In this document: piece after piece, positions 3,001-50,363 of the stretch | Position numbering within the stretch: the stretch's first letter is position 1 | How the letters are laid out: every line of letters begins with the position of its first letter | Origin: Parafrankia elaeagni | Lineage (GTDB): Bacteria; Actinomycetota; Actinomycetes; Frankiales; Frankiaceae | Direction: 5' to 3' | DNA length: 64,000 nt | Assembly (NCBI RefSeq): GCF_000374165.1 | Contig: NZ_KB893672.1 | Span: 115,002 to 179,001 of the forward strand | The notes under the pieces: generated by a model | Database searches by the model: none | What the model saw: the letters and a program-made list of their open reading frames with translations, nothing else | Told to the model about the DNA's origin: nothing | Translations under genes and position numbers: made by a program

Positions 3001-6000
3001 CCGCAGCAGCCTCGCCAGCCCGGAGACCGCCTCGCCCTCGTTCGGCCCGGAGGCTGTGCCCGGTGCCGCGCCGGCCCAGGTGCGCAGGTGGTCGGCGGTG
3101 TCCGGGCGTACGGCGGCGCCGAACAGGGCCAGGAACTCCTCGGTGTACGCCGCCGCGTTCGCCTCGGCGTCGGCGAGCAGATCGCCGAGCCAGGTGCCCG
3201 GCGCCCAGCCCGCCTCGGGGAACACCCCGGCGGCGGTCTGCGGATCCTGGGCGCCGGCGCGGGAACGCCGGTCCACCAGCCAGGCCACGTACTGGCGCTC
3301 CAGGATCTCCACCGCGTCCAGGTAGGTCGCCGGCGGCCGGACATCGCCGTCGATGAGCGCCAGCGGGTCGGCGAGGCGCTGCGTGTCGTGCCCCCGGCCC
3401 TTCACATAGGCCAGGACCAGCGCGTTCCCCGTCAGCCGCCCGGCCCGCCCGACCCGCTGCACATAGGAGGCGACGGTGCGCGGCAGCGACCCGAGCATCA
3501 CCGTCGACAGGTCGCCGATGTCGATGCCCAGCTCCAGCGTCGGCGTCGCCGCCAGCACGTTCGGCACCGCCGGCCCGCCACCCTCGCGGAACTGCCGCTC
3601 CACGTCGAGGCGGACGGCGTCCGGCAGCAGCGAGGTGTGCTCGTGCGCCACCACCCGGCGCATGTCGACGCTGCGGTACAGGTGCCGGTAGTAGTCGTCG
3701 CCGCGCGGGGCCCGGCGCAGGTGACCCGGGCAGGCCTGGCGCAGGCAGGCGGCGTCCGCCAGGTCGTCGACGGTGCGCCGGGTGCCCGGGGTGAGCGTCT
3801 GGCAGACGTCGCAGCGCAGCGCCAGCGCCCCCGCCGCCAGCCCGTCCGGGTCGGCCGCGCTGACCACGACCTGCGCCGGGTCGAGCAGGAAGACCGTCGC
3901 GTTCGTCTCCGTGCGCCGCCGCGACAGCCAGCCCGCGTCGGCCATCTCCTCCAGCAGCGCCCGGGTCACCAGCCCGCCGTCGCGTGCCGTCAACCGCAGC
4001 TGGCGCTGCGCCCAGCGGGCGTACCAGGAGGCCGGCCCGGTGATGCTGTCGAACGTCGCCGTCCGCTCGGACGTCCGCCCCGTCGTCGGGAACGTCGGCG
4101 CCGGCCGGCCCGGCGGGAACGCCGGCAGCCCCTCACCGCGCGCCGCCCGCCGGCCCCCGGTGAGGAACCAGCGGTTCCCGTCATGCTCGACGAACGACTC
4201 CAGCCAGCGATGCCAGATCCCGCCCTGCACCCGGACCCGCTCCAGCACACCCCGCGCCCACGCCACCAGCCGGGCGTCGTCGAGCGCCGCACCGAGAGCC
4301 TCGTCGTTCTCCGCCGACAGCGAATGCTGCTGGCGGGCCCGCGCCACCGCCCGGCCCGCGACCCGGGCCAGCGCCTCGCCGTGGCCGGTGTCGACCTCGG
4401 CGACGGCCGCCCCGGTCAGCTCCAGGGTGCGCCCGGTACGGGCGTTGAGCCCGAACTCCAGCGCCGCGTCGAACGCGAGGCGCCGCTCGACGAACTGCCG
4501 GGCCCGGTTCTGCTCCGGCCTCCCGCCGCCGGGCTGCCAGTAGCCGCGGAACGCCGCCCACTCCGCCAGCGCCGGCGGCACCAGCCGGTAGCGGCGCACC
4601 GGGTCGTCCCCGGCCCGCTCCATCGCCTCCCGGGCCAGGTCGGCGACGGTCAGCGGCCCGCCGTGCTCGATCGTGTCGAACAGCGCCGCCCGCAGGCTCA
4701 GCGCATGCGACCGGGCCTGGACGAACCCCGCCGTGTGCGCCGCGTCCTGCACACTGTCGGTGAACAGCAGCGTCTTCTTCTCCGCGGTGTCCAGATGCGC
4801 CGACCCGAACAGCGCGGACAGCGTCACCGACGTCAGCGTCGACACCCCGCTGCCGAGGAAGCGGATGCCGTCCGGCTGCCGGCACGACGGGCAGGTCTGC
4901 GCCCGCGCCCCGGTGTCGTCATCCCAGGCGGTCAGCACCGGGATGTGGGTGCTCTCGTCCGGCTCCCCGTCGGCCGCCGGCTGCGCCGTGAGAATCAGCG
5001 TCGACGTGTCCAGCCACAGCAGGCCCTCGACGGACGTCGCCCCGCCCCCACTCGCTGCTCCGTCGGCTGTCCCGCCGGCCGTTCCGGCCCCTTCCGCGGT
5101 GTCGGCGTCGGCGGCGTCGGCGGCGTCGGCGGCGTCGGCGGTGCCGGCGGTGCTTGCGTCGGCACCGGCGGTGTCGGCATCGGCGGTGTCGGCATCGGCG
5201 ATCACGGCGGCGGCCTCGCCCGGGGCGTGCAGCAGCGCCCGGAACCGCTGGTCACCGGCCCGCGAGGCCCGCCGGACGGTCGTCTCCGAGGCATCGACCG
5301 CCCGCCCCACCAGGGTGCGCAGCGCCCCCCACCCGGCCCGGCCGCAGTGCCGGCAGTACAACGCCGGCAGGTACAGGTCGAGATCGGCGTGCGCCCCGTC
5401 GTCCGACCAGCGGAACGCCGCGGTGGGCGACACCCGCCGGTCGATCCGGGTCACCTCCCGCACCCACAGCTGCGTGTCCACCCCCAGCAGCCGGCGGCCC
5501 ACCGCCGGCTCGGCGTTAGCCCGCGCCCGCGCCTGGGAGAGCAGCCCGAGGTAGGCCTCGACGACGGCCATCCCATCCGCCCGCCCCGCACTGGTGTCGT
5601 CGGGCAGCATCTCCCTCGCGAGGTCCCGCATCGACGCCGGACGCAGCGCCGCGGCGAGCAGCCCCTCGGTCAGCGGGTGCGCCGCCAGGACGGCGGGAAG
5701 CCGGTCACCGCGGCGCAGCCGGCGGATCTCGGCGGCGGAGAACTCGGCCCCGTCGCCGTCCCGGGCGACCAGCGCGCCGAGCAGCGCGTCGGCGACCTGC
5801 TCCGGGCCCTCCGCAACGGCCGCACGGACAGTCCCGGCGAGCAGCCGGGTGTCCGGCAGCCGCCGGATCGACACATCGGGCGTCGGACGGCTGTGCTCGC
5901 GGCGCCAGTCGTCCGGCGCCATCCGCTGCTCGACCACCACCGCGTCCGCCTCGAACCGGCGGCCGAAGACAGTCTCGGCGAACACCCGCATCGCGGCGAA

Positions 6001-6948: not shown

Positions 6949-9900
6949 CCGGGCAGCTGCCCGTGTGCCTCGGCCTGCGCCTTCTTCGCCTCCCGCTCGG
7001 CGGTCAGTCGGCTGAAGTGCTCGTGCGCGATGCGCAGGTCCGTCTCCCGGTTCACCCCGCTGAACGGCCCGGCATAGTTCCGGTCGGGCCCGTTGAGCGT
7101 GTGGACCCGCTCTCCGGCCGCGGTCGCCTTGTCGAGCTGCTTCGCGAGATCAGCCGGCAGCTGCCGCCCGAACGAGTCGTACCGCGCCTTGCGCTCATAG
7201 TCCTGCAGCACGGGGAACTGTGTCCGGTAAACGGTAACCAGCTCGTCCGCGGTGAGGCCGAGCATCACGGCCACGATTGCGTCGATCTCCACCAACGCCT
7301 GCCGCCGATCCGCCGCCCGCCGCAGCGGAGTCCCCCACTCCCACTCCGCCGAGACCTCCCCGATCTCCGCCCGCTCCCGGTAGGCCACCCCGACCCCAGG
7401 CACCCACCGGTCCTCCCGCCACGCGGGATCCCAGAGCTCCGCCCAGAGCGGCGCGTACGGCCGCACCAGGCAGTTCAACCGCAACGTCCGCAGCACCAAG
7501 TCTGCCTCCAGTGCATGCCCTCGCACATGCGGGAACCGGCGTATCAGCCCCTGATTCACTTCCGAGCCGGCGCATTTGACAAAAAAATCGGTTGTCAGGG
7601 AACACCACGTTCCGACAGCCATAATCAAATCTACTGGGTCGGGTATCGAGAGTGTCAGGACTGTGTTCACGTGGCTAGGTCCGGGAGGGATCAAAGCTGC
7701 GTGCAGGCTTCTGACGGTGGCGGGGTCGGTCATGCGTCGCCAGGCTAGTCGGAAGCTGTCGCTACTCGGACGGCCATTCCACTGCGGATAGGCGGCGTGG
7801 TACTCGGGGGCGGGTTTGGATCGCTGATATGTTGTTCTCGGAACGAAGTTCTCGGAAATCTTTTCCAGATTGATGGATTCGATATCTTGTCTTTTTACGG
7901 AGATCTCGGTAGGTTGCTGAAAAAGTGGTGTTGCGACCGATATATGAGGTCCTTGTAGGATTGTATTTGACCATGTTGCTGGTATGCTCGGGCGGCGCTC
8001 GAACCATCCGCGCTGGCGGTCCGCTGATTCGTGCCACCCCGCGGTCCAGGAGATTTCGAGCCTGCCGAGTCGAGGTGCGTTGGCGAGCTTTGCGAGTACT
8101 GCTGCGCTGGAGGTGTTGACCGGGAACAGCATCCTGGCCTGTTCGTACGATGTCCCTGGTTCGTCGAGAAGATCGGCCCAGGTCTGGAGCGCCTTCCTGT
8201 CGACCTTCGTTATCCGGGCTTGGTGGGGTCGGGTATCCCAATCTCCGTGCTCATCGCGAACGCCTGGCTGTGGGCCCGAACTGTCGTGGGAGAGCGACCG
8301 ATCGATTACCTGAGGTTCGTATAGCCAGCTGGCGTGAAGGAACGTGACATCTCGTGGTGAGCCGTATACGTGTGTGCCGAAGGTGCGCGTATGTTGAATC
8401 TCCGGAAAAAGTTTCCGTTCGTTGCGGTACTGCCAGTGGCGGCGTAGTTGCCGATATGTAGCAAGCCGTAGGCTTGCTGCCCGTGTTTCGGTGAAGTGAG
8501 ATTCTGGATGAATCAGAGATGTTATTCCTCGGGGGTTCATGGATTTCCAGGTGCGGTCCATGAAGCAGCGGTAGAGGTCTGGCTGAAGGCCGTGGAGGAG
8601 CGGTCGTTCGATTGGACTGCCGAGGTGGGCGTTGAGACCAGCCTGCTCGGCGCGTTGGTCGATGTACCAGGTCTCGGCGGCGGGCAGGTGGAAGGTGCGC
8701 TTACGGCGCTCGGTCTTTTCTTGCTCGGCCGCAGTGGGCACGAGACACCACCACGGGTCGTGCTCGGCGAGCACCCCGGCTTCGTCCCAGTCGGGGCGGA
8801 CCCAGGGAGGGTTTCCGACCTGGAGGTCGAAGCCGCCGTGTGTGAAGACCTGGGGGAAGTCGAGTTCCCAGTGGAAGAAGCCTTGGCGGTCGGAGATCTC
8901 CTCCGCCACCCGGAGCCAGGGGATGTCGTGTAGGGCCTCGTCGACGGGTCTTGCGGCGGCGAAGGTGCGGTCGAGTTCTTCGGCGTCGTCGAGGCCGGCC
9001 CACGAAAGGTCGTCGGCGAAGGCGGACTGGCCGTTCTTCTCGTTCCGTCCCGGCTTCGTGGCCTTGCCGAGCAGGGCCTCCAGACCGGTGAGCCATGCGT
9101 CCAGGTCCGGGGCGGGAATCTCAGTGGTCACAGGCCAGGACCACAGGGCGCACCAGGCGTCCATCGCGCGGCGCAGGCGGCGGTAGGCGCTGTTCGGATC
9201 GTTGAGAACCTTCTCGACCTGCTCGCGGGTCACCGGCTCTGTCGACGGTTCCGCGGAACCGTCCGCGCCCCAGACCGGGGTGGTGCGGCGGATACCGGCC
9301 TCGGCGATCTGCAGGCGGCGCCGGGAAAGTTCCCAGAGCACCTCGACCCGCTGAGCCAGGCGTGCCAGCCGGTTCTGCTGCTCCTTGCCCGGGGTGCGCA
9401 GCACGCCGGCCCGCCAGGCCCGCAGCCGCTCGCGTGCCTCAGGTGCGTACGTCTTCGCCTCAGCGGTGTCGACGACCGCGCCCCAGCCCGCCGCCGGCAG
9501 CAGGAAGTGGTGGATACCGGCGCCTACCGGAGGAACTGAGTCGTCCGGCAGCGCTGGGTCGTGCAGGGGGACGTCCGTCGGAACGGTGGTGAGCCATTCC
9601 TTCTTCTTCAGCAGCGCGGGGGCGTAGACGGCGCGGCGGGCGCCGATGAGGCTGTTGCCGCGGCGCAGGTGCAGGCCGAACCAGGGGGCGGCCAGGCCGG
9701 CCTGCATGGTGTCGAGCCACAGGGAGACCTCGGCGAGTTCGACGGCGGTGGCGTTCAGGTCCACCCCGTACACCTGGTGCAGCGCCAGATACGCCTTCAC
9801 CCGCTGCAGCTCGGCCGGGTACTGCTCGGCGGGAATGCGCTCGTCGCGTTCGTCCTGCGCCCGGGCGAGGTAGGCGGCGGCGAGCTGGCGGACGGCCTCG

Positions 9901-11654: not shown

Positions 11655-14600
11655 CAGACGTTCCCCCCGTCGCTTTCGCTGCCGGAACCGCTGGTGGCCG
11701 CCGGGATCACGACGGCGGGGATCACGACGGCGAGCGGGCGCAGCAGCCGCTGGCTGGCGCGCAGCGAGCGCGCGATCTCCTCCTCGAGGCTGACCTGCTT
11801 CGACAGGCGGCGAACCTTCGCCAGCCCCGGCCCGGTCATGTCGAGTTCGAGCCGGGCGGCCTGCTCCCGCCAGCGGGTCCGCCGGTTCGACCAGCCGGCC
11901 AGCCGCCGTTCCAGGTCGGAGTGCTGGATGTCCTCGGCCATGTCGAGGGTGCGGGCCGCCGCGTCGATCGCGGCCGGCACCAGCGCGCGCAGCTCGTCGC
12001 TGACCGCCGCCGGGCCCGGGTTCACCGCCGGTTCCCGCTCGCCGGGCCCGGGGATCAGCCCGGTGCCCGCGAACAGCTCCAGTCCCTCGACGACCTGCGC
12101 GAGCGGCAGGTCGGCCCGGCCGGTCGGGAACTCGACGGCGACCATCTGGCGGGTCACGACCTGGCCGCGCCGGTTCATCAGCGTCGCGATCACCAGCACC
12201 CGCGGGGCGTCCACCGGCCCGCGCACCAGCGGCACCTCGTTGCGGCCGCCGGCCGCGAGCACCTTGTCCGCGGCCCAGTCGAGCACCGGGTGCAGGGGGG
12301 AGAGGAAATGAGCCTCCGGCCAGGTGGACGGGGTGGGCGCGGCGACCTCGCGGGCCTTCGCGGGACGTCCCGCGCGCTTCGCCGGGGTGAGACCCTTCGG
12401 CCCGCTCGCGGTCACCAGGGCCGACTGGGCCGGGGCGCCGCCGGCCTGCCCCTCGCGGGCCGCGCGTAGGCCGTCCAGCGCGACCGACGGGGTGACGGCG
12501 AGCAGCAGCTGCTCCCGGATCCCGCGCTCCGCGACGTACGACGCCGGCAGCGCGTCGAGGCGCACCCGCAGGTCGCGCGGCGGGCGCAGCGCGATCAGGC
12601 TCTTGTCCCGGAAGACCTTCCAGCCGACACCGCCGCGGGCCGGGTCCTTGTCGTCCGGCGCTCGGGTGGGATCGTCGTACACCTCGGCGACCGCGTCGGC
12701 GAGGAAATCGGCGTCGGTGGGGTACAGCGACTCACGCGGGCGGTCCGGGGGAACGGGCGGCAGGTCGTCACCGGCGGCGGCGAAATCCTCGTCGAAGAAG
12801 GAGTCGAAGAAGTCGTCGGCTCCGTGCCCCGCACCGGGGTCGGGCACGACCTCGTCCAGGTTCTGCCCGCGGGCGAGCGCGTCCCGGATCGCGTCTTCCT
12901 CGCCGCTCGCCGAATGCAGGTGCATCAGCGTCGCCGCGTCGCCCAGCGTCGTGTGGGCGAGGTGTTCCTTGGCCAGCAGGCGCTGCAACACCCGGATATC
13001 GCCGCTGAACCGGTCGTCGGAGGGCACCAGCGCCAGCGCCGTGATCCGCGGCGGGTGCTTCTGCCCGTACCGGTCGATCCGCCCGTTGCGCTGCTCGATC
13101 CTGATCAACGACCAGGGGATGTCGACGTGGATCAGGTGGTGGCACTGTGCGTGCAGGTTGACGCCCTCGCTGGCGACGTCCCCGGTGATCAGCAGCCGGA
13201 CGGGGCTCGCCGTCGTCTTGAAGTCGTCGACGATGCGCTCCTGCTCGACGTCCGGCAGGCCGCCGTGCATGACGGCGATCTGGTTGCGGGCGAGGCCCAG
13301 GAGGTCGGGCAGCTCGCGGGCGAGCCAGCGCAGGGTGGCGACCCGCTCGGCGAACAGCACCGCGCGGGTCGTCGAGCGGGCGCCGACACCGATGGTGCGC
13401 AGGTACTCGGCGAGCGCGGTGAGCTTGGCGCTCTCCCCGGCCAGGGCCAGCTCGGTGAGGTCGCGCAGCCGCTCGAGGGCCTGCCGTTCCGGCTCGTGAT
13501 CGCCGCCGCGCTGGGCGCCGCCGCCCTGGGCGGTGAGCCGCTTGAGGCGGGCCTCGGTGGTCTCCAGCAGCGCGGCGGGGGAGGAGAGGAACGCCTTCGC
13601 CAACGTCCACGGGAACAGCGCCGACCCGCGGCCCGCGACCGGGGACGGGCCGTCCTGCGGGTACAGCCAGGTCCGGGAGATCTCCGTGGCGATCGCGTCC
13701 TCCGCCGGCGAGGCGGCCACCGGGATCACCTCGGGCTCGGGGCGCAGCGCCCAGTCGGCGCCGACTTCCGCGGCGACCTCGGGGGAGTGGCGGTGCCGGC
13801 GGATGAACAGCCGCTCCACATCCGCGACGTCGTACTCGCCGTCCGGGCCGACGGCCGTCGGGTCGAGCAGCCGCAGCAGCTCCGCGAACGACTCCTTCTT
13901 CCCGTTGTGCGGTGTCGCCGACGCCAGGACCAGCGCCTCCGTGTTCGGCGCGAGAACCCGCGCGAGCTCGTTGTTCAGCGTGCCGGTGTTCGTCAGGTTG
14001 TGCGACTCGTCGATGACAACGACATCCCACCGGTGCCGTTCCAGAAAAGATCGGTACCGCGGCGATTTCAACGTGTCGATCGAGACGATGATGCGGCGGT
14101 AGAACGTGAACGGGTTCCGGCTCGCCGGCAGGTTCTGCCGCACCCGCTGCAGCCCGTCGCTGTCGAGCCGGACGAGCGGCAGCCCGAACCGGCACCACAG
14201 TTCGTGCTGCATCTGCTCCAGGACGTGCCGGGGCGTCACCACCAGCACCCGGTCGGCCCGCCCGCGCCGGGTCAGCTCCGCGAGGAGCATCCCGATCTCC
14301 AGGGTCTTGCCGAGGCCGACGGCGTCCGCGATGAGCACCCGGGGCCGCAGGTTCGCCGGGGACAGCGCGTGGGCGACCGCCCGTCGCTGGTAGTCGAGCC
14401 GGTCGACCAGCATCCCGTCGGCCACGGTCAGCGAGGTCTCGCCGGCCGGCATCGGCGTCCGGCGCAGGGTGGCCTCCAGCCACAGCCGGGTGCGCCGGTG
14501 CCGCGGGGAGCCGTCCGGGAGCAGCTCCGCCTCGCGGGGGTCCAGCAGCTCGATGTGGTCGAGCCCGCTGAAGAAGGTCGCCGTGGTCTCCCGCACGAGC

Positions 14601-39715: not shown

Positions 39716-40288
39716 GTGAATCTCAAGGACTGGGCTGCGGCGAACGGGGTCGGGTACTCGACCGCCCGTCAGTGGTTCCTTGAGGGCAGGCTGCCCGTGC
39801 CCGCGCGCAGGGTCGGTGGGCTGATCCTGGTCGACGAGCCGGCCCGGCCGGCGGCGGTGGAGACGGTCGCGGTGTACGCCCGGGTCTCGTCCGCCGACCA
39901 GCGATCGGATCTTGACCGGCAGGTCGCGCGGGTCACCATGTGGGCGGCTGGGCAGGGCCTGCCGGTCGGCCGGGTCGTGACCGAGGTCGGCTCCGCGCTG
40001 AACGGGCACCGCCGGAAGTTCCTCGCCCTGCTACGCGACCCGGCCGTGACCACGATCGTCGTCGAGCACCGGGACCGGTTCGCCCGGTTCGGCGCCGAGT
40101 ACGTCGAGGCCGCGCTCGCCGCGAACGGCCGGCGCCTGCTGGTCGTCGACCCCGCCGAGGTCGATGACGACCTCGTCCGGGACATCACCGAGATCCTCAC
40201 GTCGATGTGCGCTCGGCTCCACGGCCGCCGGGCCGCGGTGAACCGCGTCCGGCGCGCGGTCGCTGCCGCGACCGAGGCTGCCGAATGA
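39716..40288 (+). CDS. tnpA: IS607-family transposase TnpA (serine recombinase).
   Basis: 'YARVSSADQRSDLDRQ' (catalytic Ser region); 'VVEHRDRFARFG'; N-terminal MerR-type HTH. Confidence 0.85.
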   Translation: MNLKDWAAANGVGYSTARQWFLEGRLPVPARRVGGLILVDEPARPAAVETVAVYARVSSADQRSDLDRQVARVTMWAAGQGLPVGRVVTEVGSALNGHRRKFLALLRDPAVTTIVVEHRDRFARFGAEYVEAALAANGRRLLVVDPAEVDDDLVRDITEILTSMCARLHGRRAAVNRVRRAVAAATEAAE

Positions 40289-41613
40289 CGACGACGCAGG
40301 CGTTCCGGTTCGCGCTCGACCCGAACGACGCCCAGCTTGCCGGCCTGCGCCGCCACGCCGGGGCGGCCCGGTTCGTCTACAACTGGGGCCTGGGCTTCGT
40401 GAAGGCCGCGCTCGCGCAGCGCGACGCGGAGCAGAGCTACGGCCTGGCCGGTGATGCGCTGACCGTGGTGCCGTGGACGCTGCCCGCGCTGCGGCTGCGC
40501 TGGAACCAGGTGAAGAACGACGTCGCGCCGTGGTGGGGCGAGTGTTCGAAGGAGGCGTTCTCCGCCGGACTCGACCAGTTGGCCCGCGCGTTGAAGAACT
40601 TCTCCGACTCGAAGAACGGGAAGCGCGGGGGACGGCGGGTCGGTTTCCCCCGGTTCAAGAAGCGAGGGAAGGCCCGCGACTCCTTCCGGTACACGACCGG
40701 CGCCTACGGCCCAGCCGGCGACCTGCACGTCAGGCTACCCCGGATCGGCCGCGTCAAGGTCCACGAACCGATGGGAGCGCTCACCGGCCGGTTGGCCGAG
40801 GGGCGGGGACGGCTGCTCGGCGCGACCGGGTCCCGCACGGCGGGCCGCTGGTTCGTGTCGTTCACCGTGCAGGCCGAACGGGAGGTTCCCGAAGCGCCGT
40901 CACCACGGCAGCGGGCCGGCGGGCCGGTCGGTGTCGATGCCGGCGTGAAGCACCTCGCGGTCCTCTCGACCGGCGAGCAGGTCGACAACCCGAAACCACT
41001 CGCCCGCTCCCAGCGGAAGCTACGGAAGGCGTCCCGGGCCTACTCCCGGTCGAAGCCGGGCAGCGCCGGCCGCCGGCAACGCGCCGCCCGGCTCGGAAAG
41101 ATCCACGCGCACGTCGCGAACCAGCGACGCGACGGCCTGAACAAGCTCACCACCCGGCTCGCCACGAACCACGACGTGGTCGTCGTCGAGGACCTGCACG
41201 TCGCCGGCATGGTCCGCAACCGGCGCCTCGCCCGCGCCGTCGCCGACACCGGGATGGCCGAAATCCGCCGCCAACTCGACTACAAGACCCGGTGGTACGG
41301 CTCACGGTTGCACATCGCGAACCGCTGGTACCCAAGCTCGAAGACCTGCTCCGGCTGCGGCTGGCGAAACCCAAGCCTGACGCTGTCGGACCGCACGTTC
41401 CACTGCCAGTCCTGCCACCTGGTGATCGACCGTGACACCAACGCGGCGGTCAACCTGCGCAACCTCGTCGCCGCCAGTACATCGGAGACGCACAACGCCC
41501 GTGGAGCCGACCATAAGACCCCGCTCGCGGGGCCGGTGGCTGTGAAGCGGGAACCGGGCACGGCCGCGGCCGGTCAGACCCGGGGTGCCCCACCGCAAGG
41601 TGAGGCGGCATGA
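40285..41613 (+). CDS. tnpB: TnpB (OrfB, IS605/IS607 family; RuvC-like RNA-guided nuclease).
   Basis: 'FRFALDPNDAQ' N-terminus; RuvC-like 'VGVDAGVKHLAVLSTG' and 'VVVVEDLHVAGM'; zinc finger 'CSGCGW...CQSCH'; 'NAAVNL'. The ωRNA is expected across the 3' end and downstream of the gene. Confidence 0.85.
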   Translation: MTTTQAFRFALDPNDAQLAGLRRHAGAARFVYNWGLGFVKAALAQRDAEQSYGLAGDALTVVPWTLPALRLRWNQVKNDVAPWWGECSKEAFSAGLDQLARALKNFSDSKNGKRGGRRVGFPRFKKRGKARDSFRYTTGAYGPAGDLHVRLPRIGRVKVHEPMGALTGRLAEGRGRLLGATGSRTAGRWFVSFTVQAEREVPEAPSPRQRAGGPVGVDAGVKHLAVLSTGEQVDNPKPLARSQRKLRKASRAYSRSKPGSAGRRQRAARLGKIHAHVANQRRDGLNKLTTRLATNHDVVVVEDLHVAGMVRNRRLARAVADTGMAEIRRQLDYKTRWYGSRLHIANRWYPSSKTCSGCGWRNPSLTLSDRTFHCQSCHLVIDRDTNAAVNLRNLVAASTSETHNARGADHKTPLAGPVAVKREPGTAAAGQTRGAPPQGEAA

Positions 41614-41618
41614 CAGCG

Positions 41619-41837
41619 CTATCCAGCACTGTCATGCAACGGGAGCAGGTGGTTCTCGCCGGGGACGATGGTGGTGCGGGTGTCGGGGAGCATCGTGGCG
41701 AGGTGGTCGACCAGTTCCGGGTGGTCGAGCGCCAGCTGTAGCGCGAACACGCAGCCGGAGGAGTGCGCGAGCACCCGGGCCCGCTCGATCCCGAGGCGGC
41801 GCAGCAGATCCGCGGACTCGGCGGCGTGGGCGGCCAC
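41619..41837 (-). pseudogene. Remnant of an α/β-hydrolase gene (nucleophile elbow joined directly to the C-terminal His region); probably non-functional.
   Basis: 'LAHSSGCVFALQLALDHPELV' (GxSxG-like elbow) is joined within about 50 aa to 'IVPGENHLLPLHDSAG'. The N-terminal 90 aa and the cap/core are missing. Abuts the tnpB end. Confidence 0.35.
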
Positions 41838-41904: not shown

Positions 41905-42288
41905 TCAGTCGGCGTAGAGGCGGATCTCGATGCCGTCGGGGTCGTGGAGGCCGACGAGAACGGTGCCGCCGTGGTGGCCGGTGACGATGCCGCCGTGTTT
42001 CTGGTCCAGGGCGACCAGGTGGTCGGCCCAGGCGTGGATGCCGTCGCGGGTCGGCACGCCGAGTGCGACGAGGTCGAAGCCGGCGAGGGCGGCGGCGCGC
42101 TCGGGATCCTGCCGGAGCGCGATCTGGGTGGTGCCGTCCGGGGCCTTGAGGGCGACGCCGCGGAGCTCGCCGTCCTCGGTGAACTCGATCGCCACCTCGA
42201 GGTCGAATACCTGCCGGTACCAGTCGCGGCTGGCGCGGACGTCGCTGACCGGGATCTTCACGTGGTGGATCGGTGCGAGGTCAGGCAT
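41905..42288 (-). CDS. VOC-family (glyoxalase / bleomycin-resistance / dioxygenase fold) protein.
   Basis: 'IHHVKIPVSDVRASRDWYRQVFDLEV'; 'GIEIRLYAD'. AAGGAG Shine-Dalgarno 6 nt before the ATG at 42288. Confidence 0.7.
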   Translation of the reverse strand: MPDLAPIHHVKIPVSDVRASRDWYRQVFDLEVAIEFTEDGELRGVALKAPDGTTQIALRQDPERAAALAGFDLVALGVPTRDGIHAWADHLVALDQKHGGIVTGHHGGTVLVGLHDPDGIEIRLYAD

Positions 42289-42303
42289 GCTCTCTCCTTT
42301 GGT

Positions 42304-42317
42304 TAGAGTCAACTCTA
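42304..42317. promoter_or_regulatory. Perfect palindrome TAGAGTCAACTCTA in the 56-bp VOC/TetR divergent intergenic region; candidate TetR operator.
   Basis: 6-bp arms with a 2-bp spacer, centred between the two start codons. Confidence 0.45.
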
Positions 42318-42344
42318 GTGACTCATTGGAGTAGTCTCTAGCGA

Positions 42345-43019: not shown

Positions 43020-43147
43020 AACGCCCAACCGGTACTGACAGCGAACCTGCGCCCCACGGGGACGGAGCGTCGCTGACCCGGCCGGAACGGCGCGCACGGC
43101 GGGGTAGCCGTCGGCTGCATCAGATCGCCGTTCGGCTGAGCCATCCC

Positions 43148-44452
43148 GTGAAGCTCGTCGTACTCGGATTCCTGGCGACGGTCGCCGCCGCGACCGTCCT
43201 CCTGCTGCTGCCGGTCGCCGCGGAACCCGGTGTGGACACCACTTTCCGGGAGGCGCTGTTCACCGCTACCGGCGCTTCCAGCGGGGCGCTGGCCATCGTC
43301 GACACATCGACCCACTGGTCGGCTTTCGGCGAGGTCGTGGTGATGACCGCCGTCGCGCTCGGCGGCCTCGGGTTCATGACGTCGGCATCCCTGCTGGGGC
43401 TGCTGGTCTCGCGCCGGCTCGGGCTGCGGATCCAGGTGCTCACCGCGGCCGAGACCCGGTCTCTGGGGCCGGGCGATGTCCGGCGGGTGCTGCGCGGGGT
43501 CGCCGCGACCACCTTCTCCATCGAGGCGGTGACCGCGCTCGTCCTGTTCGGACGCCTGTGGTCCGGTTATGACGAGCCGGTCGGCCGGGCCGCCTATCTC
43601 GGGGTCTTCCATTCGATCACGGCGTTCAACAACGCCGGCTACGCGCTCTACCCGGACAATCTCATGGGGTTCGCGACCGACCCGGTCATCATTCTCGCGA
43701 TCGGTCTCGCGGCGATCCTCGGTGGTCTCGGCTTCCCGGTGCTCTTCGAGTTGCGCCACGAACTGCGCACTCCGGGGGCCTGGTCGACGCACACCAGGAT
43801 GACCTTGCTCGGCTACGGGATCCTGCTGGTCGGCGGAGCGGTCGCCGTCGCGGCGCTGGAATGGCGGAACCCGGCGACGCTCGGCCCGCTGGGCTACCCC
43901 GGGAAAGTGCTGAACGGCTTCTTCGGGAGTGTCACGGCGCGTACCGCCGGCTTCAACGCGATCGACTACGGCCAGGCCGATCCGGCCACCCTAATCGTCA
44001 CCGACGTGCTGATGTTCATCGGCGGCGGCAGCGCCAGCACGGCCGGCGGCATCAAGGTCACCACGTTCATGATTCTCTTTTTCGCGATCATCGCGGAGGC
44101 GCGCGGTGACGAGACCGTCGACGCGTTCGGCCGGCAGGTCCCCCACACGGCGCTGCGCCAGGCCATCGCGGTGGCCCTGCTCGGGATCGCGATCGTCGTC
44201 CTCGGGACGCTGAGCATCCTGACCGTCAGCGACCACTCTCTCGATCAGGTCCTCTTCGAGGTCACGTCGGCCTTCGGCACGGTCGGGCTCAGCACCGGGA
44301 TCACCGCGCAGCTGCCGGCGTTCGGCCAGTACGTGCTCGTCGTCCTCATGCTCGTCGGCCGCATCGGTCCCATTACCCTGGCCTCGGCGCTGGCCCTGAG
44401 GGAACGGCGCCGGCTCTACCGGCTGCCCGAGGAACGCCCGATCGTCGGGTGA
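43148..44452 (+). CDS. trkH: TrkH/KtrB-family potassium uptake membrane protein; start uncertain.
   Basis: Multiple membrane-pore-membrane repeats with 'GGLGF' and 'GFN' selectivity-like motifs: 'ALGGLGFMTSASLLGLL', 'RTAGFNAIDYG', 'GGGSASTAGGIKVTTF', 'GTVGLSTGIT'. There is no ATG between the TetR stop and the conserved core; GTG at 43148 is used. Confidence 0.75.
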   Translation: MKLVVLGFLATVAAATVLLLLPVAAEPGVDTTFREALFTATGASSGALAIVDTSTHWSAFGEVVVMTAVALGGLGFMTSASLLGLLVSRRLGLRIQVLTAAETRSLGPGDVRRVLRGVAATTFSIEAVTALVLFGRLWSGYDEPVGRAAYLGVFHSITAFNNAGYALYPDNLMGFATDPVIILAIGLAAILGGLGFPVLFELRHELRTPGAWSTHTRMTLLGYGILLVGGAVAVAALEWRNPATLGPLGYPGKVLNGFFGSVTARTAGFNAIDYGQADPATLIVTDVLMFIGGGSASTAGGIKVTTFMILFFAIIAEARGDETVDAFGRQVPHTALRQAIAVALLGIAIVVLGTLSILTVSDHSLDQVLFEVTSAFGTVGLSTGITAQLPAFGQYVLVVLMLVGRIGPITLASALALRERRRLYRLPEERPIVG

Positions 44453-44546: not shown

Positions 44547-45227
44547 GTGGGGCGGGACAGGCATCCGAACGCCGTGCTGATCATCGGGCTGGGGCGGTTC
44601 GGGGGCACGCTCGCCGAGGCACTGCAACGCCAGGGCCAGCACGTGGTGGCCGTCGACGAGAACCGTGAGCTCGTCCAGGAGTGGTCGGGAACGCTGACGC
44701 ACGTCGTCGAGGCAGACGCGACGAACGAGGCGGCGCTCCGCCAGCTCGGTGCTGACGGTTTCGAACGGGCGGTCGTCGCCATCGGCACCGGCATCGAGGC
44801 GAGCCTGCTGGCCACCGGCGTGCTGCTCGACCTGGGCGTGACCGAGGTCTGGGCGAAGGCGATCACCCGTCAGCATGGCCGGATTCTGGAGCGGATCGGC
44901 GCGTCGCACGTCGTCTACCCCGAACGCGACGCCGGCGAGCGGGTCGCCCACCTGCTCTCCGGCCGGCTCACCGACTTCGTCGAGTTCGACCAGGGGTTCG
45001 CGATCGCCAAGCTGCGCGCCCCGCGGTCGATCTGTGGCAGCACACTGCGGGACCTGGCACTGCGCAGCCGCTTCGGCGTGACGGTCGTCGCGGTGAAACG
45101 ACCTGGCGGCGAGTTCGGCCCGACCGAGTCGGCCACCGCCCTCAACCGCGACGACATGATCGTCGTCACCGGCCGCACCGAGCACATCGAACGCTTCGCC
45201 ACCGAGACCGGGACCCGCGCCCACTGA
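44547..45227 (+). CDS. trkA: TrkA/KtrA potassium transporter regulatory subunit (RCK N- and C-domains).
   Basis: Rossmann 'VLIIGLGRFGGTLAEAL' (GxGxxG) followed by a TrkA-C-like domain 'DFVEFDQGFAIAKLRAPRSICGSTLRDLALRSRFGVTVVAV'. Confidence 0.85.
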   Translation: MGRDRHPNAVLIIGLGRFGGTLAEALQRQGQHVVAVDENRELVQEWSGTLTHVVEADATNEAALRQLGADGFERAVVAIGTGIEASLLATGVLLDLGVTEVWAKAITRQHGRILERIGASHVVYPERDAGERVAHLLSGRLTDFVEFDQGFAIAKLRAPRSICGSTLRDLALRSRFGVTVVAVKRPGGEFGPTESATALNRDDMIVVTGRTEHIERFATETGTRAH

Positions 45228-45253
45228 CCCGTTCGCCGGGCTTCGGCAACACG

Positions 45254-45640
45254 TCAGCGGGCGAGCGCGACTCGTTCCTCGGCTTCCACGCTGCGGTTCC
45301 ATTCGCCCTTGGACTCCTGCCAGCCGTCCTCGTCCGCGCCGAGACGCCAGTAGCCGGAGATCGACAGCTGCCGCGGTGTCAGCCCGCGCTCGACCCGCAG
45401 AATGCGCCGCAGCTGCTTCACCATGGTGGCTTCGCCGTGCACGAACGCCTGGCCGGTGCCGGACGGCAGGTCGAGAGCGGCGACGGCCCTGACCGCCAGC
45501 TCGCCGACCTGACGCTGGCCGCGGTGGAGCCAGGTGACGACGGCGCCGGCCGGCGCGTCGAGCGGGATCTCCTCGTCGCTGCCGCCGACCTCGACGAACA
45601 CGTGGACCGGCACGCCGGTCGGGGTCCGCTCCAGCGACGC
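45254..45640 (-). CDS. Siderophore-interacting protein (SIP/ViuB family), C-terminal NAD(P)-binding half only; truncated or split gene.
   Basis: 'VHVFVEVGGSDEEIPLD...VTWLHRG...QAFVHGEATMVKQLRRILRVERGLTPRQLSISGYWRLG' matches the SIP C-terminal domain. The FAD-binding half is not found. The upstream region is occupied by an iron box. Confidence 0.45.
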   Translation of the reverse strand, partial: ASLERTPTGVPVHVFVEVGGSDEEIPLDAPAGAVVTWLHRGQRQVGELAVRAVAALDLPSGTGQAFVHGEATMVKQLRRILRVERGLTPRQLSISGYWRLGADEDGWQESKGEWNRSVEAEERVALAR

Positions 45641-45698
45641 CGTGTCTCCTCGCGGTCGGAGTGGAAGAGCAGGTGCCGGCCGACGTGAGCCGGATACT

Positions 45699-45717
45699 TT
45701 AGGTAAAGATAACCTAC
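45699..45717. promoter_or_regulatory. IdeR/DtxR-type iron box in the low-GC divergent promoter region.
   Basis: TTAGGTAAAGATAACCTAC matches the consensus TTAGGTTAGGCTAACCTAA at 15 of 19 positions and is palindromic. It sits in the only AT-rich stretch of the region, between the SIP remnant (minus strand) and the YihY gene (plus strand). Confidence 0.65.
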
Positions 45718-45872
45718 CTTGTCTATCGGGACGTATCCATCGCACCACCGACCTGGAGGCCCACCGTGACCACTCCCGCGCACCCCGGCCGCAGACTGTT
45801 CGTCTGAGTCCGTGTCGCCGGCAATCCGCATCGGAGGGTGCGGGGCGGCGTTCCGCCGGAGACGCTGTCGGT

Positions 45873-46973
45873 ATGGAAGGCGCCTCGACAGGAGTGGCCC
45901 GGCAGCTCGTGGCACTGGGCCGGGAGGTCGTCGACGGCCTGCGTGGCCACGATCTCGCGCTGATATCCGCCGGAGTCACCTACTACGCCGCGATCGCGCT
46001 GGTCCCGGGCGTGCTGGTCGCGATCAGTCTGATCGGCCTGTTACTCGGCGAGGCGCGCGCCCACGAGCTCGGCAGCTCGCTGGCCGAGGCCCTGCCCGGC
46101 GGTCTGGGCGCGCCCGCGGTTGTCGACACGGCGTTCCAGGCCGCGACGACGATGTCGCCGCTGGTCGTGGCGGGTGCGGCGGTTCCGGCCACGTTCTATG
46201 GCGAAGGGCTGCGCCGGGCGTTCGTGCGGCTCGCCGGACAGCGCGAGGATCTGGTCGGATGGCGCGGCCGCCTCAGCGTGCTGCCGCTTCTCGCCGCCGC
46301 GCCGGTGCTGCTGCTCCCGGTGCTGCTCGTGACACCGGTGCTGGCGCGGCTGTTCGCCGACAGCGGCCTGTCGGCGGCCCTCGGTGTGGTCGTCGCGTTC
46401 ACGGTCGACTGGCTGGTACTGACCGCGACCCTGACCTTCGTCTACCGGGTGGTCGGCCCAGGCCGGCCGGCCTGGGCGGCGACGCTGTGCGCGGCGGGAG
46501 CAACCGGATCCTTCGTCGCCGGGTTCGTGCAGGGCTTCGTGCTCTTCCTGTCGTTCACCCTGGATCTCGGTCTGCCGTTCGGTGGTTTCCGGCCGGTGGG
46601 GGCGGCCGTCGCGGTCGGCTTCTGGCTCTTCCTGCTCCACCTCATCGTCCTGGTCGGGTACGGACTCGCCCTGCGCCTCGGCGAGCACGACGGCGGGTCG
46701 GTGTCCCTGCGTCGCCTGGTGCCATCCATCCGCCACCGAAAGCGCGTCAGGGCCGCTGGCACACAATCCTGTCGGCGGAACTCGGAGGAGGCACGATGTG
46801 CGAGGGCGCGGACGAGACCAACTGGGCCGGGAACATCGTCTACCGGGCAGGCCGGCGCGTCGCGCCCACGTCCGTCGAGGAGCTCTGTGAGATCGCGGCC
46901 GGCTGCGGTCGGGCCCGGCCTGTCGGCACGCATCACTCGTTCAACACGATCGCGGACACGGCGGGGACGCTGA
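45873..46973 (+). CDS. YihY/BrkB (virulence factor BrkB / ribonuclease BN-like) family membrane protein; C-terminal extent uncertain.
   Basis: 'LISAGVTYYAAIALVPGVLVAISLIG', several transmembrane segments, 'LTFVYRVVG...'. The frame stays open to 46973 and overlaps the next gene by 179 nt. Confidence 0.6.
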   Translation: MEGASTGVARQLVALGREVVDGLRGHDLALISAGVTYYAAIALVPGVLVAISLIGLLLGEARAHELGSSLAEALPGGLGAPAVVDTAFQAATTMSPLVVAGAAVPATFYGEGLRRAFVRLAGQREDLVGWRGRLSVLPLLAAAPVLLLPVLLVTPVLARLFADSGLSAALGVVVAFTVDWLVLTATLTFVYRVVGPGRPAWAATLCAAGATGSFVAGFVQGFVLFLSFTLDLGLPFGGFRPVGAAVAVGFWLFLLHLIVLVGYGLALRLGEHDGGSVSLRRLVPSIRHRKRVRAAGTQSCRRNSEEARCARARTRPTGPGTSSTGQAGASRPRPSRSSVRSRPAAVGPGLSARITRSTRSRTRRGR

Positions 46974-48113: not shown

Positions 48114-48678
48114 TCAGGACGGTTCGCGTGGACTGGGGTCGGACGCGACGAACGTCGCCACCCCGCCGACGAGCTCCACCCGGTGGTTGGCGAAAGCCGC
48201 GCCGAGTGCTCGGTCCAGAGCTTCCGCCTGGTCGTCGACGTTGTGAAAGACGCCTTTCCGGTTGTAGAAGGCGAGCAATGTCCGTGCCGGCCTGGACAGC
48301 TTCGCCGCGGTGGCCAGGATGGTCGAGCCGAACAGCACCGCCTGGGGCGACATGGCCGGCCGGATCGAGGTCAGCAGCCGGCCTGTCTTGGTTTCGAGGT
48401 CACCGGGCATGCAGTGCAGCAGGTAGTTCACGCCGACCGAGTCGAACGGCGCACCGGGTAGCTCACCCACCGGTTCGAGTGCGTTGTGGACCGCGGTTCT
48501 CGGGGCGAACCGCCTGATCCTGGCCGAGGCCGTACGCAGGGCATTCTGGTTGAGGTCCACCAGCGTCACAGCTGGGTTCGGGGTGGGCCACCGCGCCTTG
48601 TCTAGGCGGCCTGACCGGCGAGCACGTCGGCGGAAAGGTCTTCGGATCCGGACCCGTGACTGTCGGCGGTTGACGTCA
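48114..48678 (-). pseudogene. Small class I SAM-dependent methyltransferase apparently split by a frameshift near 48600.
   Basis: Downstream frame: 'AVTLVDLNQNALRTA...FDSVGVNYLLHCMP' (post-motif I and motif II). The upstream frame 'MTSTADSHGSGSEDLSADVLAGQAA*' ends in a stop where the glycine-rich motif I is expected. Confidence 0.35.
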
Positions 48679-48842: not shown

Positions 48843-50363
48843 TCACCGGCTCGTCGAAGGAGGAGCCGGCACGCTCGCGTTCTGATCGGTTCCGCCCATG
48901 AGTCGTCGATCGTGGGGGAGGCCGGCCGCCGCTTCAAGCGCGCCCAGCTCGGCCTCGACGAGTTCCGGCAGCCGTGTCCCGTCCCGCACCGACTCGTCCA
49001 TCGTGAAACCGATGCACGCCTGACCGTCCAGCCCGCCGAGCAGGACCGCCAGGCGCTGGCCTGCGGGGAGCGGAGGGGTGGGCAGGGCGGCGATGACCGG
49101 TCGACCGAGGATCTCCATCGGGCCGGTCAGACCACCCGGGTTGGACGCGGTCAGCGCGAAGATGTGGGACATGATCCCGGTGGACAGCGCGGCCGGTCGC
49201 AACGGTGCGGGAACCGCCCCGAGGAAGAGGCGTTCCGCGACGCCTGGAGTCCCGCCCCGCTTGTGCCGGACGGTCTGCCGGCGGATCGCCTCCACGCGGC
49301 GGTGGACCGACGCCTCATCGTGAGGCAGCGCGATCCGCACGGTGGTCAGGTAGTTGCTCACGTGGTCCCGCTCGGCCGCCCGGCGAGTGCTGACCGGCAT
49401 CGCGGCGTGCAGCCGGCCCCGGCCAGTCCGGCCAGTCCGGCCAGTCCGGCCAGCCCGGCCGGCGCCAGGGCCGGACTGGCCGGACTGGCCGGAGCCGAGG
49501 CGTGGCCAGGCACGCAGAGCGCCGGCGAGCGCCGCCAGGAACACGTCGTTCACGGTTACCGCGTGGGCGCGGCTGATCGCCCGTAGCCTGGCCAGATCCA
49601 CCTCCAGCCAGAAGTGGCGCGGGTATCCCGTGGGCGCCGCCGAGAGCGGGCCGATCGTGGCCGTCCGGGCGAGCCATCCGAGTGAGTGGGCGGTGGCCCG
49701 GCAGACAGCTCGAGGGCCGGGCCGACGGTCCGGCGACCTCCGCGGAGGTTCACGCTCCGATCCCGGGCCGGACAGGCCGAACAGCTTTCCCAGCACCAGG
49801 TTCAGCGCCGTCCCGTCCATCCACACGTGGCTGGCGCGGTACAGCAGGGTGAAGCCGCCATGGTGGGGGCCGTGGAGCAGCCAGAGTTGCCACGGCGGTG
49901 CATCCAACGAGATCTCGACCGCTGACAGCCGTCCCACCGCCTCGCGCAGCCCGGTGAGCCCCGGTTCCGCGGGGAGCCGGTACTCGTGGACGTGCCGGGC
50001 CGGGTCGAAACCGACGTCTGCCACCCAGGCCAGTCGGCCGCGTCCTGTCGAGGCGATCCGGTGGGTCAGTGGAGGAAAGTCGCGTGCCCGGTCCGCGACC
50101 AGCTCGCGCAACGCCTGGACCTCGGGCGCGGGGCCGTCGGCGACCAGCAGGTAGCCGACCGTGAGTGGCGTCCTGGGAAATGCTCGCTGGTATCCGAGTA
50201 CGAGCGCGTCCGTCGGGGTGAGTGGCCGGGCGGGAACATCGGCGCGGTAACCGCTGTGTGTCGCATTCCGTTCCTGCGTCTGCGCTGCCCCGTCGCTTTC
50301 CTCGCAGGGGTGACGTGCCTGGTCCACGCGCGAGGCCTGCCACCAGAAACCCGGGCGCGTCAT
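48843..50363 (-). CDS. Wax ester synthase/diacylglycerol acyltransferase (WS/DGAT)-like O-acyltransferase; start uncertain.
   Basis: N-terminal 'LTPTDALVLGYQRAFPRTPLTVGYLL'; active-site-like 'YRASHVWMDGTAL' (HHxxxDG variant); about 470-aa size. Confidence 0.55.
   Translation of the reverse strand: MTRPGFWWQASRVDQARHPCEESDGAAQTQERNATHSGYRADVPARPLTPTDALVLGYQRAFPRTPLTVGYLLVADGPAPEVQALRELVADRARDFPPLTHRIASTGRGRLAWVADVGFDPARHVHEYRLPAEPGLTGLREAVGRLSAVEISLDAPPWQLWLLHGPHHGGFTLLYRASHVWMDGTALNLVLGKLFGLSGPGSEREPPRRSPDRRPGPRAVCRATAHSLGWLARTATIGPLSAAPTGYPRHFWLEVDLARLRAISRAHAVTVNDVFLAALAGALRAWPRLGSGQSGQSGPGAGRAGRTGRTGRTGRGRLHAAMPVSTRRAAERDHVSNYLTTVRIALPHDEASVHRRVEAIRRQTVRHKRGGTPGVAERLFLGAVPAPLRPAALSTGIMSHIFALTASNPGGLTGPMEILGRPVIAALPTPPLPAGQRLAVLLGGLDGQACIGFTMDESVRDGTRLPELVEAELGALEAAAGLPHDRRLMGGTDQNASVPAPPSTSR

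Follow-up and report, generated by a model that had tools for sequence, protein, structure and literature searches.

We analysed a stretch of 64,000 nucleotides from Parafrankia elaeagni (contig NZ_KB893672.1 of assembly GCF_000374165.1; hereafter the window), in which a 19-bp iron box of the IdeR/DmdR/DtxR type lies between what is left of a siderophore-interacting protein (SIP) gene on the minus strand and a YihY/BrkB-family membrane-protein gene on the plus strand. A first reading of the sequence (the original prediction) had singled out this box and proposed that it might place the divergent YihY gene under iron control. Comparison with the intact locus of related species points elsewhere: the box is very probably the leftover iron operator of a SIP gene that was inactivated by deletion, which is ordinary gene decay.

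The iron box, TTAGGTAAAGATAACCTAC, occupies positions 45699-45717 and is annotated, without strand, as the predicted operator of the former SIP gene on the strength of its consensus matches and of orthologous boxes. Iron boxes were scored throughout by consensus matching alone, without a site-based weight matrix. The plus strand of the box agrees with the IdeR/DmdR consensus TTAGGTTAGGCTAACCTAA at 15 of 19 positions, as originally predicted, and the minus strand (its reverse complement) agrees with the DtxR consensus at 16 of 19. Scored against the degenerate consensus TWAGGTWAGSCTWACCTWA, the box reaches 16/19 and is the sole match in the window at three or fewer mismatches; 100 dinucleotide-preserving shuffles gave zero matches (0.00 expected), and the analytic expectation for at least 15/19 on both strands is about 0.009 per window. 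The palindrome described for the box is partial and imperfect, since self-complementarity extends to just 12 of the 19 positions. No Rfam family was found in 45200-46200 at E values up to 1. By its sequence, the box is a high-quality IdeR/DtxR-type site and a candidate operator.

The window has a G+C content of 72%, and the box had been said to lie in the only AT-rich stretch for kilobases. This holds roughly, and only inside about 1.6 kb. At the 40-nt scale the G+C content of the box site (0.40) ranks fifth-lowest in the window, and similar dips occur at 44052 (0.43) and 42298 (0.40), which are 1.6 and 3.4 kb from the box. The lowest-G+C region of the entire window is 7570-8500, where the value falls to 0.30 over 40 nt at 7857, far below that of the box site. 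A further AT-rich segment, 42287-42330 (0.40 at the 40-nt scale), is a divergent intergenic region between a glyoxalase gene on the minus strand and a TetR gene on the plus strand. It holds TTTGGTTAGAGTCAACTCT, which agrees with the DmdR consensus at 13/19 and is more likely a TetR operator than an iron box.

A scan of genomes with the neighboring TrkA protein located the orthologous loci. The two nearest genomes that it returned, P. colletiae Cc1.17 (locus L004) and Parafrankia sp. FMc2 (locus L005), each showed 96% TrkA identity. In both, trkA is followed by a gene for a full-length, 276-aa SIP in which FAD_binding_9 and SIP domains are recognized, each at E about 1e-37. Among solved structures, the closest to this intact protein is FscN (PDB 4YHB; E = 1.2e-40 over residues 11-251). 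Both SIP genes are preceded by an iron box, TTAGGTAAGGGTAACCTAC in L004 and TTAGGTAAAGGTAACCTAC in L005; the L005 box lies 64 nt upstream of the SIP ATG, and the L004 box is at the same position. Across the three Parafrankia species the outer arms of the box are identical and variation is found at central positions 9 and 11 only. The high quality originally ascribed to the site is supported, and the box is conserved at the orthologous loci of two sister species.

The gene order of the relatives also indicates what the box was for. In both L004 and L005, the neighbor of SIP on its upstream side is an AraC/DJ-1 regulator gene that runs in the same direction and has its stop codon about 90-100 bp past the box. 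Because the box lies in a short intergenic region between SIP and the end of this co-directional gene, it can serve SIP only. Further out in L004 come an NmrA-like NAD-binding gene, a glyoxalase/bleomycin-resistance-family gene, an open reading frame (ORF) without a Pfam match, a histidine kinase/LuxR-type response regulator pair and then the YihY upstream region. In P. colletiae the box is therefore about 6 kb from YihY, with six ORFs between them (five with Pfam matches), and points into SIP. SIP homologues in two further assemblies, GCA_000722215.1 (locus L002) and GCA_000820785.2 (locus L003), also have an iron box before the ATG, at distances of 23 and 17 nt, respectively. Both of these SIP genes (L002 5421-6351 and L003 5552-6330) are split over two reading frames, and they are either frameshift pseudogenes or the products of draft-sequence errors.

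In P. elaeagni, the SIP gene is reduced to a minus-strand remnant at 45254-45634, which comprises codons Leu151-Arg276 and the stop codon and shares 94% identity with residues 149-274 of the L005 SIP protein (276 aa). The minus-strand ORF that contains it, 45254-45979 (241 aa), has a Pfam match to SIP (PF04954) alone, covering profile positions 18-119 of 119. FAD_binding_9 had no match in this ORF, in any frame at the locus or in the remainder of the window. These results bear out the truncated SIP gene of the original prediction, with its NAD-binding half only. The further suggestion that the FAD half is encoded elsewhere found no support within the 64-kb window, where tblastn with the full-length L005 SIP protein as query detected none. 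Moreover, the NAD(P)H-binding domain is itself incomplete, since it has lost 17 profile positions at its start and the segment WHLFVGDESALPAIAAS that the relatives carry. The remnant thus lacks a start codon, the FAD-binding domain, the first strand of the NAD(P)H domain and the GDESALPA motif.

Between the remnant and the box, positions 45641-45698 on the minus strand hold the native SIP 5' untranslated leader, which aligns base for base with the L004 and L005 leaders upstream of the ATG at 91-94% identity. The leader retains the Shine-Dalgarno sequence GAGGAG (45651..45646), which now precedes CTG GAG CGG (Leu151-Glu-Arg), the native ATG having been lost. A frameshift reading was also considered, in which 'PAHVGRHLLF', from another minus-strand frame, would be a decayed WHLL(A)GDE motif next to a small internal deletion; it was ruled out by the alignment with L004 and L005, which identifies this stretch as native SIP leader.

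Alignment with the relatives resolves the locus into the products of three deletions, whose breakpoints it places with single-base precision. Deletion 1 removed exactly 450 bp, from the SIP ATG through about Ser150. In L004 and L005, a CGACGC direct repeat is present in two copies 450 bp apart, one just upstream of the ATG and the other at codons 149-150; flank mapping against L005 places the junction at 45635-45640 (no strand assigned), where a single CGACGC copy remains. The deletion is in frame; it took the entire FAD domain, and the NAD(P)H domain lost its beginning, WHLFVGDESALPAIAAS. The original prediction had offered a split gene and a decayed gene as options. Only the second agrees with the loss of the FAD half, ATG included, by deletion, and on the sequence comparison the SIP gene of P. 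elaeagni is a deletion pseudogene and not a split gene.

Deletion 2, with its junction at 45721/45722, removed 2032 bp relative to L005 and 2545 bp relative to L004, and with them the AraC/DJ-1 and NmrA-like genes. The window aligns with L005 to its position 5310 up to 45721, and from position 7343 onwards from 45722; this junction (45713-45722, no strand assigned) shows the microhomology CCTACCTTG / CCTGCCTGG. Deletion 3, with its junction at 45803/45804, removed about 3300 bp relative to L004, comprising the rest of the glyoxalase gene, the ORF without a Pfam match, the kinase gene and the response-regulator gene. The total loss relative to P. colletiae is about 6.3 kb.

What the last two deletions left behind can be assigned in the same way. 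Positions 45722-45803 on the plus strand are a glyoxalase/bleomycin-resistance-family remnant, consisting of the upstream region, a GGAGG, a GTG at 45766 and the first 12 codons; they are 84-86% identical to L005 7343-7425 and L004 11189-11252, both of which lead into a glyoxalase ORF. Deletion 3 fused glyoxalase codon 12 to the end of the response-regulator gene, and the resulting 13-codon mini-ORF (45766-45807) stops at the TGA of the response regulator (45805-45807). This TGA belongs to the native YihY upstream region (45804-45863, plus strand), which aligns with L004 14552-14620, directly after the response-regulator gene at 13753-14556. As judged from these alignments, the 240 bp flagged in the original prediction are a mosaic (220 bp) of three intergenic leftovers, 45641-45721 (SIP leader and operator), 45722-45803 (glyoxalase remnant) and 45804-45863 (YihY upstream region), and the local drop in G+C is due to this mosaic. 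A Logan contig (run SRR3925119), which was assembled separately, is 100% identical over 12,360 bp across all three junctions. Therefore, the structure of the locus is not an artefact of one assembler.

By analogy with known systems, an iron-loaded IdeR/DmdR repressor would, in the intact arrangement, bind the 19-bp operator just upstream of the SIP leader. Under plentiful iron, the repressor would block SIP transcription; under iron limitation, repression would be lifted and the ferric-siderophore reductase would be made. In P. elaeagni, the CGACGC-flanked 450-bp deletion has taken the start codon and the first 150 codons and left a dead target gene, and the two further deletions (about 2.0-2.5 kb and about 3.3 kb) have removed the six ORFs that lie between the box and YihY in P. 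colletiae. The operator is orphaned because its SIP target is a pseudogene.

Several points weigh against this interpretation. The box is not more strikingly conserved than the flanking leader (91-94%); its conservation is therefore weak evidence of selection and, alone, no proof of selection on the site. IdeR binding and iron-dependent repression are carried over from other genera by analogy, and we assume that IdeR is present in P. elaeagni; a literature search on Frankia, IdeR and siderophore returned no paper title naming IdeR. In addition, the frame of the remnant is open and a Shine-Dalgarno sequence is kept before CTG, so that low-level synthesis of a 119-126-aa fragment may occur.

A minus-strand site overlapping the box, TAGACA-18-TAAAGT, was examined as the ancestral SIP promoter and rejected, as it is absent from L005. 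In this E. coli-type match, the deletion-2 junction supplied the -35 hexamer and an insertion of 1 nt the -10 hexamer. The upstream region of the L005 glyoxalase gene showed no consensus promoter.

The YihY gene (45864-46973) lies on the plus strand and retains an intact core, with a match to Virul_fac_BrkB (PF03631) over profile positions 3-255 of 259 (E = 2.7e-28), in agreement with the family originally assigned to it. The protein is 87-90% identical to Frankia homologues, and its ORF is longer than theirs (369 versus 290-306 aa) by a C-terminal tail; no exact copy was present among the matches listed, the best being 90% identical. The conserved core, which ends at about LALRLG, gives way to an Arg/Ser-rich tail of about 90 residues, and this tail runs into the beginning of the downstream FAD/ALO oxidase gene, an overlap that suggests loss of the stop codon or a frameshift late in the gene.

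Could the deletions have handed the operator to YihY? With the box 146 bp upstream of its ATG, YihY might have become iron-responsive in P. elaeagni alone. The box adjoins the glyoxalase upstream remnant (45722-45765), whose reading direction is towards YihY, and any YihY promoter located in the histidine kinase/response regulator genes has been lost. However, no promoter-like site was detected on the plus strand, and the arrangement is unique to the P. elaeagni strain. The separation of about 6 kb in P. colletiae, with the box facing SIP, already argues against the proposed association, and YihY orthologues in three other Frankia assemblies (79-87% identity; two AgPm24-like and QA3) lie in different neighbourhoods, with no iron box of at least 14/19 to the degenerate consensus within 10 kb. 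Such a capture would also be a deletion accident and not a selected association. We consider it unlikely; if true, it would show in nature how the loss of genes can add a member to a regulon, YihY being of an envelope-integrity family. Comparison of the loci instead indicates that the adjacency of box and YihY is a recent accident: the box stands beside YihY because about 6.3 kb were lost in P. elaeagni, and their apparent pairing is to be corrected as an artefact of this loss.

It is less likely still, and indeed very improbable, that the SIP remnant functions by itself, either as a 241-aa protein with a novel N-terminus or as an iron-regulated NAD(P)H half of 119-126 aa that works with an FAD partner encoded elsewhere. 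The frame is open from 45979 to 45254, and its product, WP_084691989.1, reads through the box and carries the NCBI name siderophore-interacting protein; a second gene caller (Logan) reports a 119-aa product only, with a GTG start at 45613. The leader, the Shine-Dalgarno sequence and the window-specific TAGACA-18-TAAAGT all point into the remnant, and many short SIP-only predicted proteins exist in databases. Nevertheless, no family matches residues 1-113 of the 241-aa ORF, a stretch translated from the SIP leader, from the iron box and from DNA antisense to both the glyoxalase remnant and the 5' end of YihY; these pieces are non-contiguous in the relatives. A sequence correction restoring a full-length SIP frame through the box had been named as a refutation of the original prediction; the 241-aa ORF does span the box, but it is no restored SIP, because its 113 N-terminal residues translate non-coding and antisense DNA.

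A shorter product fares no better, as the ATG and the first 17 SIP profile positions, including GDESALPA, are deleted. The lineage-specific substitutions on the remnant (1 synonymous and 3 non-synonymous, against 2 + 3 and 3 + 3 in the relatives) are too few to show constraint or to test for relaxed selection. The idea that short SIP-only database proteins form a family of half-proteins was rejected, as both of those inspected (L002 and L003) are frameshifted full-length genes. WP_084691989.1 should accordingly be annotated as a pseudogene that is read through non-coding DNA.

Finally, although the AT-rich box departs from the consensus at 4 positions, we regard as negligible the possibility that it is a chance match, given that shuffled sequences yielded none and that the same box precedes SIP genes in four other genomes, or that the short P. 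elaeagni state is ancestral and the relatives carry insertions, as the polarity is clear: a SIP gene that lacks both start codon and flavin domain, and a glyoxalase stub of 12 codons that terminates at a foreign stop, can only be deletion products.

An operator left behind by a decayed SIP gene, the explanation we favor, can be set beside several known systems. The 19-bp iron-box consensus and repression by DmdR1 have been described for Streptomyces (bioRxiv 10.1101/163170). The Parafrankia box has the same length as the IdeR (Mycobacterium), DmdR1 (Streptomyces) and DtxR (Corynebacterium) boxes represented by TTAGGTTAGGCTAACCTAA, and the same outer arms, TTAGGT...AACCTA; like the Streptomyces boxes (bioRxiv 10.1101/163170), it belongs just upstream of an iron-acquisition gene in a high-GC actinobacterium. 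It differs from the established boxes in its center (AAAGATA in P. elaeagni versus TAGGCTA) and in its last base, C. Moreover, it is a predicted site, and in P. elaeagni the regulated gene is destroyed.

In Corynebacterium glutamicum, the SIP gene cg0767 is among the DtxR-repressed genes (PMC2807442). This association of a SIP-family gene with a DtxR-family repressor is the one that appears, from sequence, to be intact in P. colletiae and Parafrankia sp. FMc2. However, cg0767 belongs to another genus, is not an orthologue and is tabled beside the siderophore ABC-transporter ATPase gene cg0768 (PMC2807442), whereas the neighbors of the Parafrankia SIP gene are trkA and the AraC/DJ-1 regulator gene. 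As for the protein, FscN of Thermobifida fusca, a SIP-family ferric-siderophore reductase, has the same two-domain FAD and NAD(P)H layout as the intact Parafrankia SIP. In contrast, the P. elaeagni copy retains residues 151-276 only, without the flavin domain that the reaction requires.

Taken together, the boxes before the intact SIP genes of P. colletiae and Parafrankia sp. FMc2 would provide a first candidate IdeR operator for Parafrankia. The pairing of operator and gene is a new instance of a well-known one, caught after gene loss, and holds no surprise for specialists. The locus is also a cleanly mapped case of deletions flanked by microhomology, in a Frankia-group genome region that is undergoing decay.

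Other features of the neighborhood were recorded along the way. At 41619-41837, on the minus strand, lies a 72-aa alpha/beta-hydrolase remnant covering Pfam positions 54-103 of 245, the P. colletiae orthologue having 264 aa. At this site the window is short by about 354 bp and by about 155-190 bp relative to L004 and L005; therefore, this neighboring gene has likewise shrunk by internal deletions. At 43056, between the TetR gene and the TrkH core, 200-204 bp of L004/L005 are missing from the window, and the TrkH ORF measures 527 aa in P. colletiae versus about 434-450 aa in the window. The segment 38353-41641 (about 3.3 kb) has no counterpart in P. colletiae (L004), and an IS607-like unit on the plus strand (39716-41613) encodes a serine resolvase (190 aa) and an OrfB_IS605/TnpB (Cas12f-like TNB) protein of 468 aa.

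On the other side of the locus, a 151-aa methyltransferase-like ORF on the minus strand (48114-48569) matches Methyltransf_12 at positions 24-98 of 98 only, below the curated cut-off, and may be another truncated gene. Within the WS/DGAT acyltransferase gene (48843-50363, minus strand), two 9-bp tandem arrays of 4.7 and 2.8 copies (49419-49493) encode tripeptide repeats of the GRT/SGQ type.

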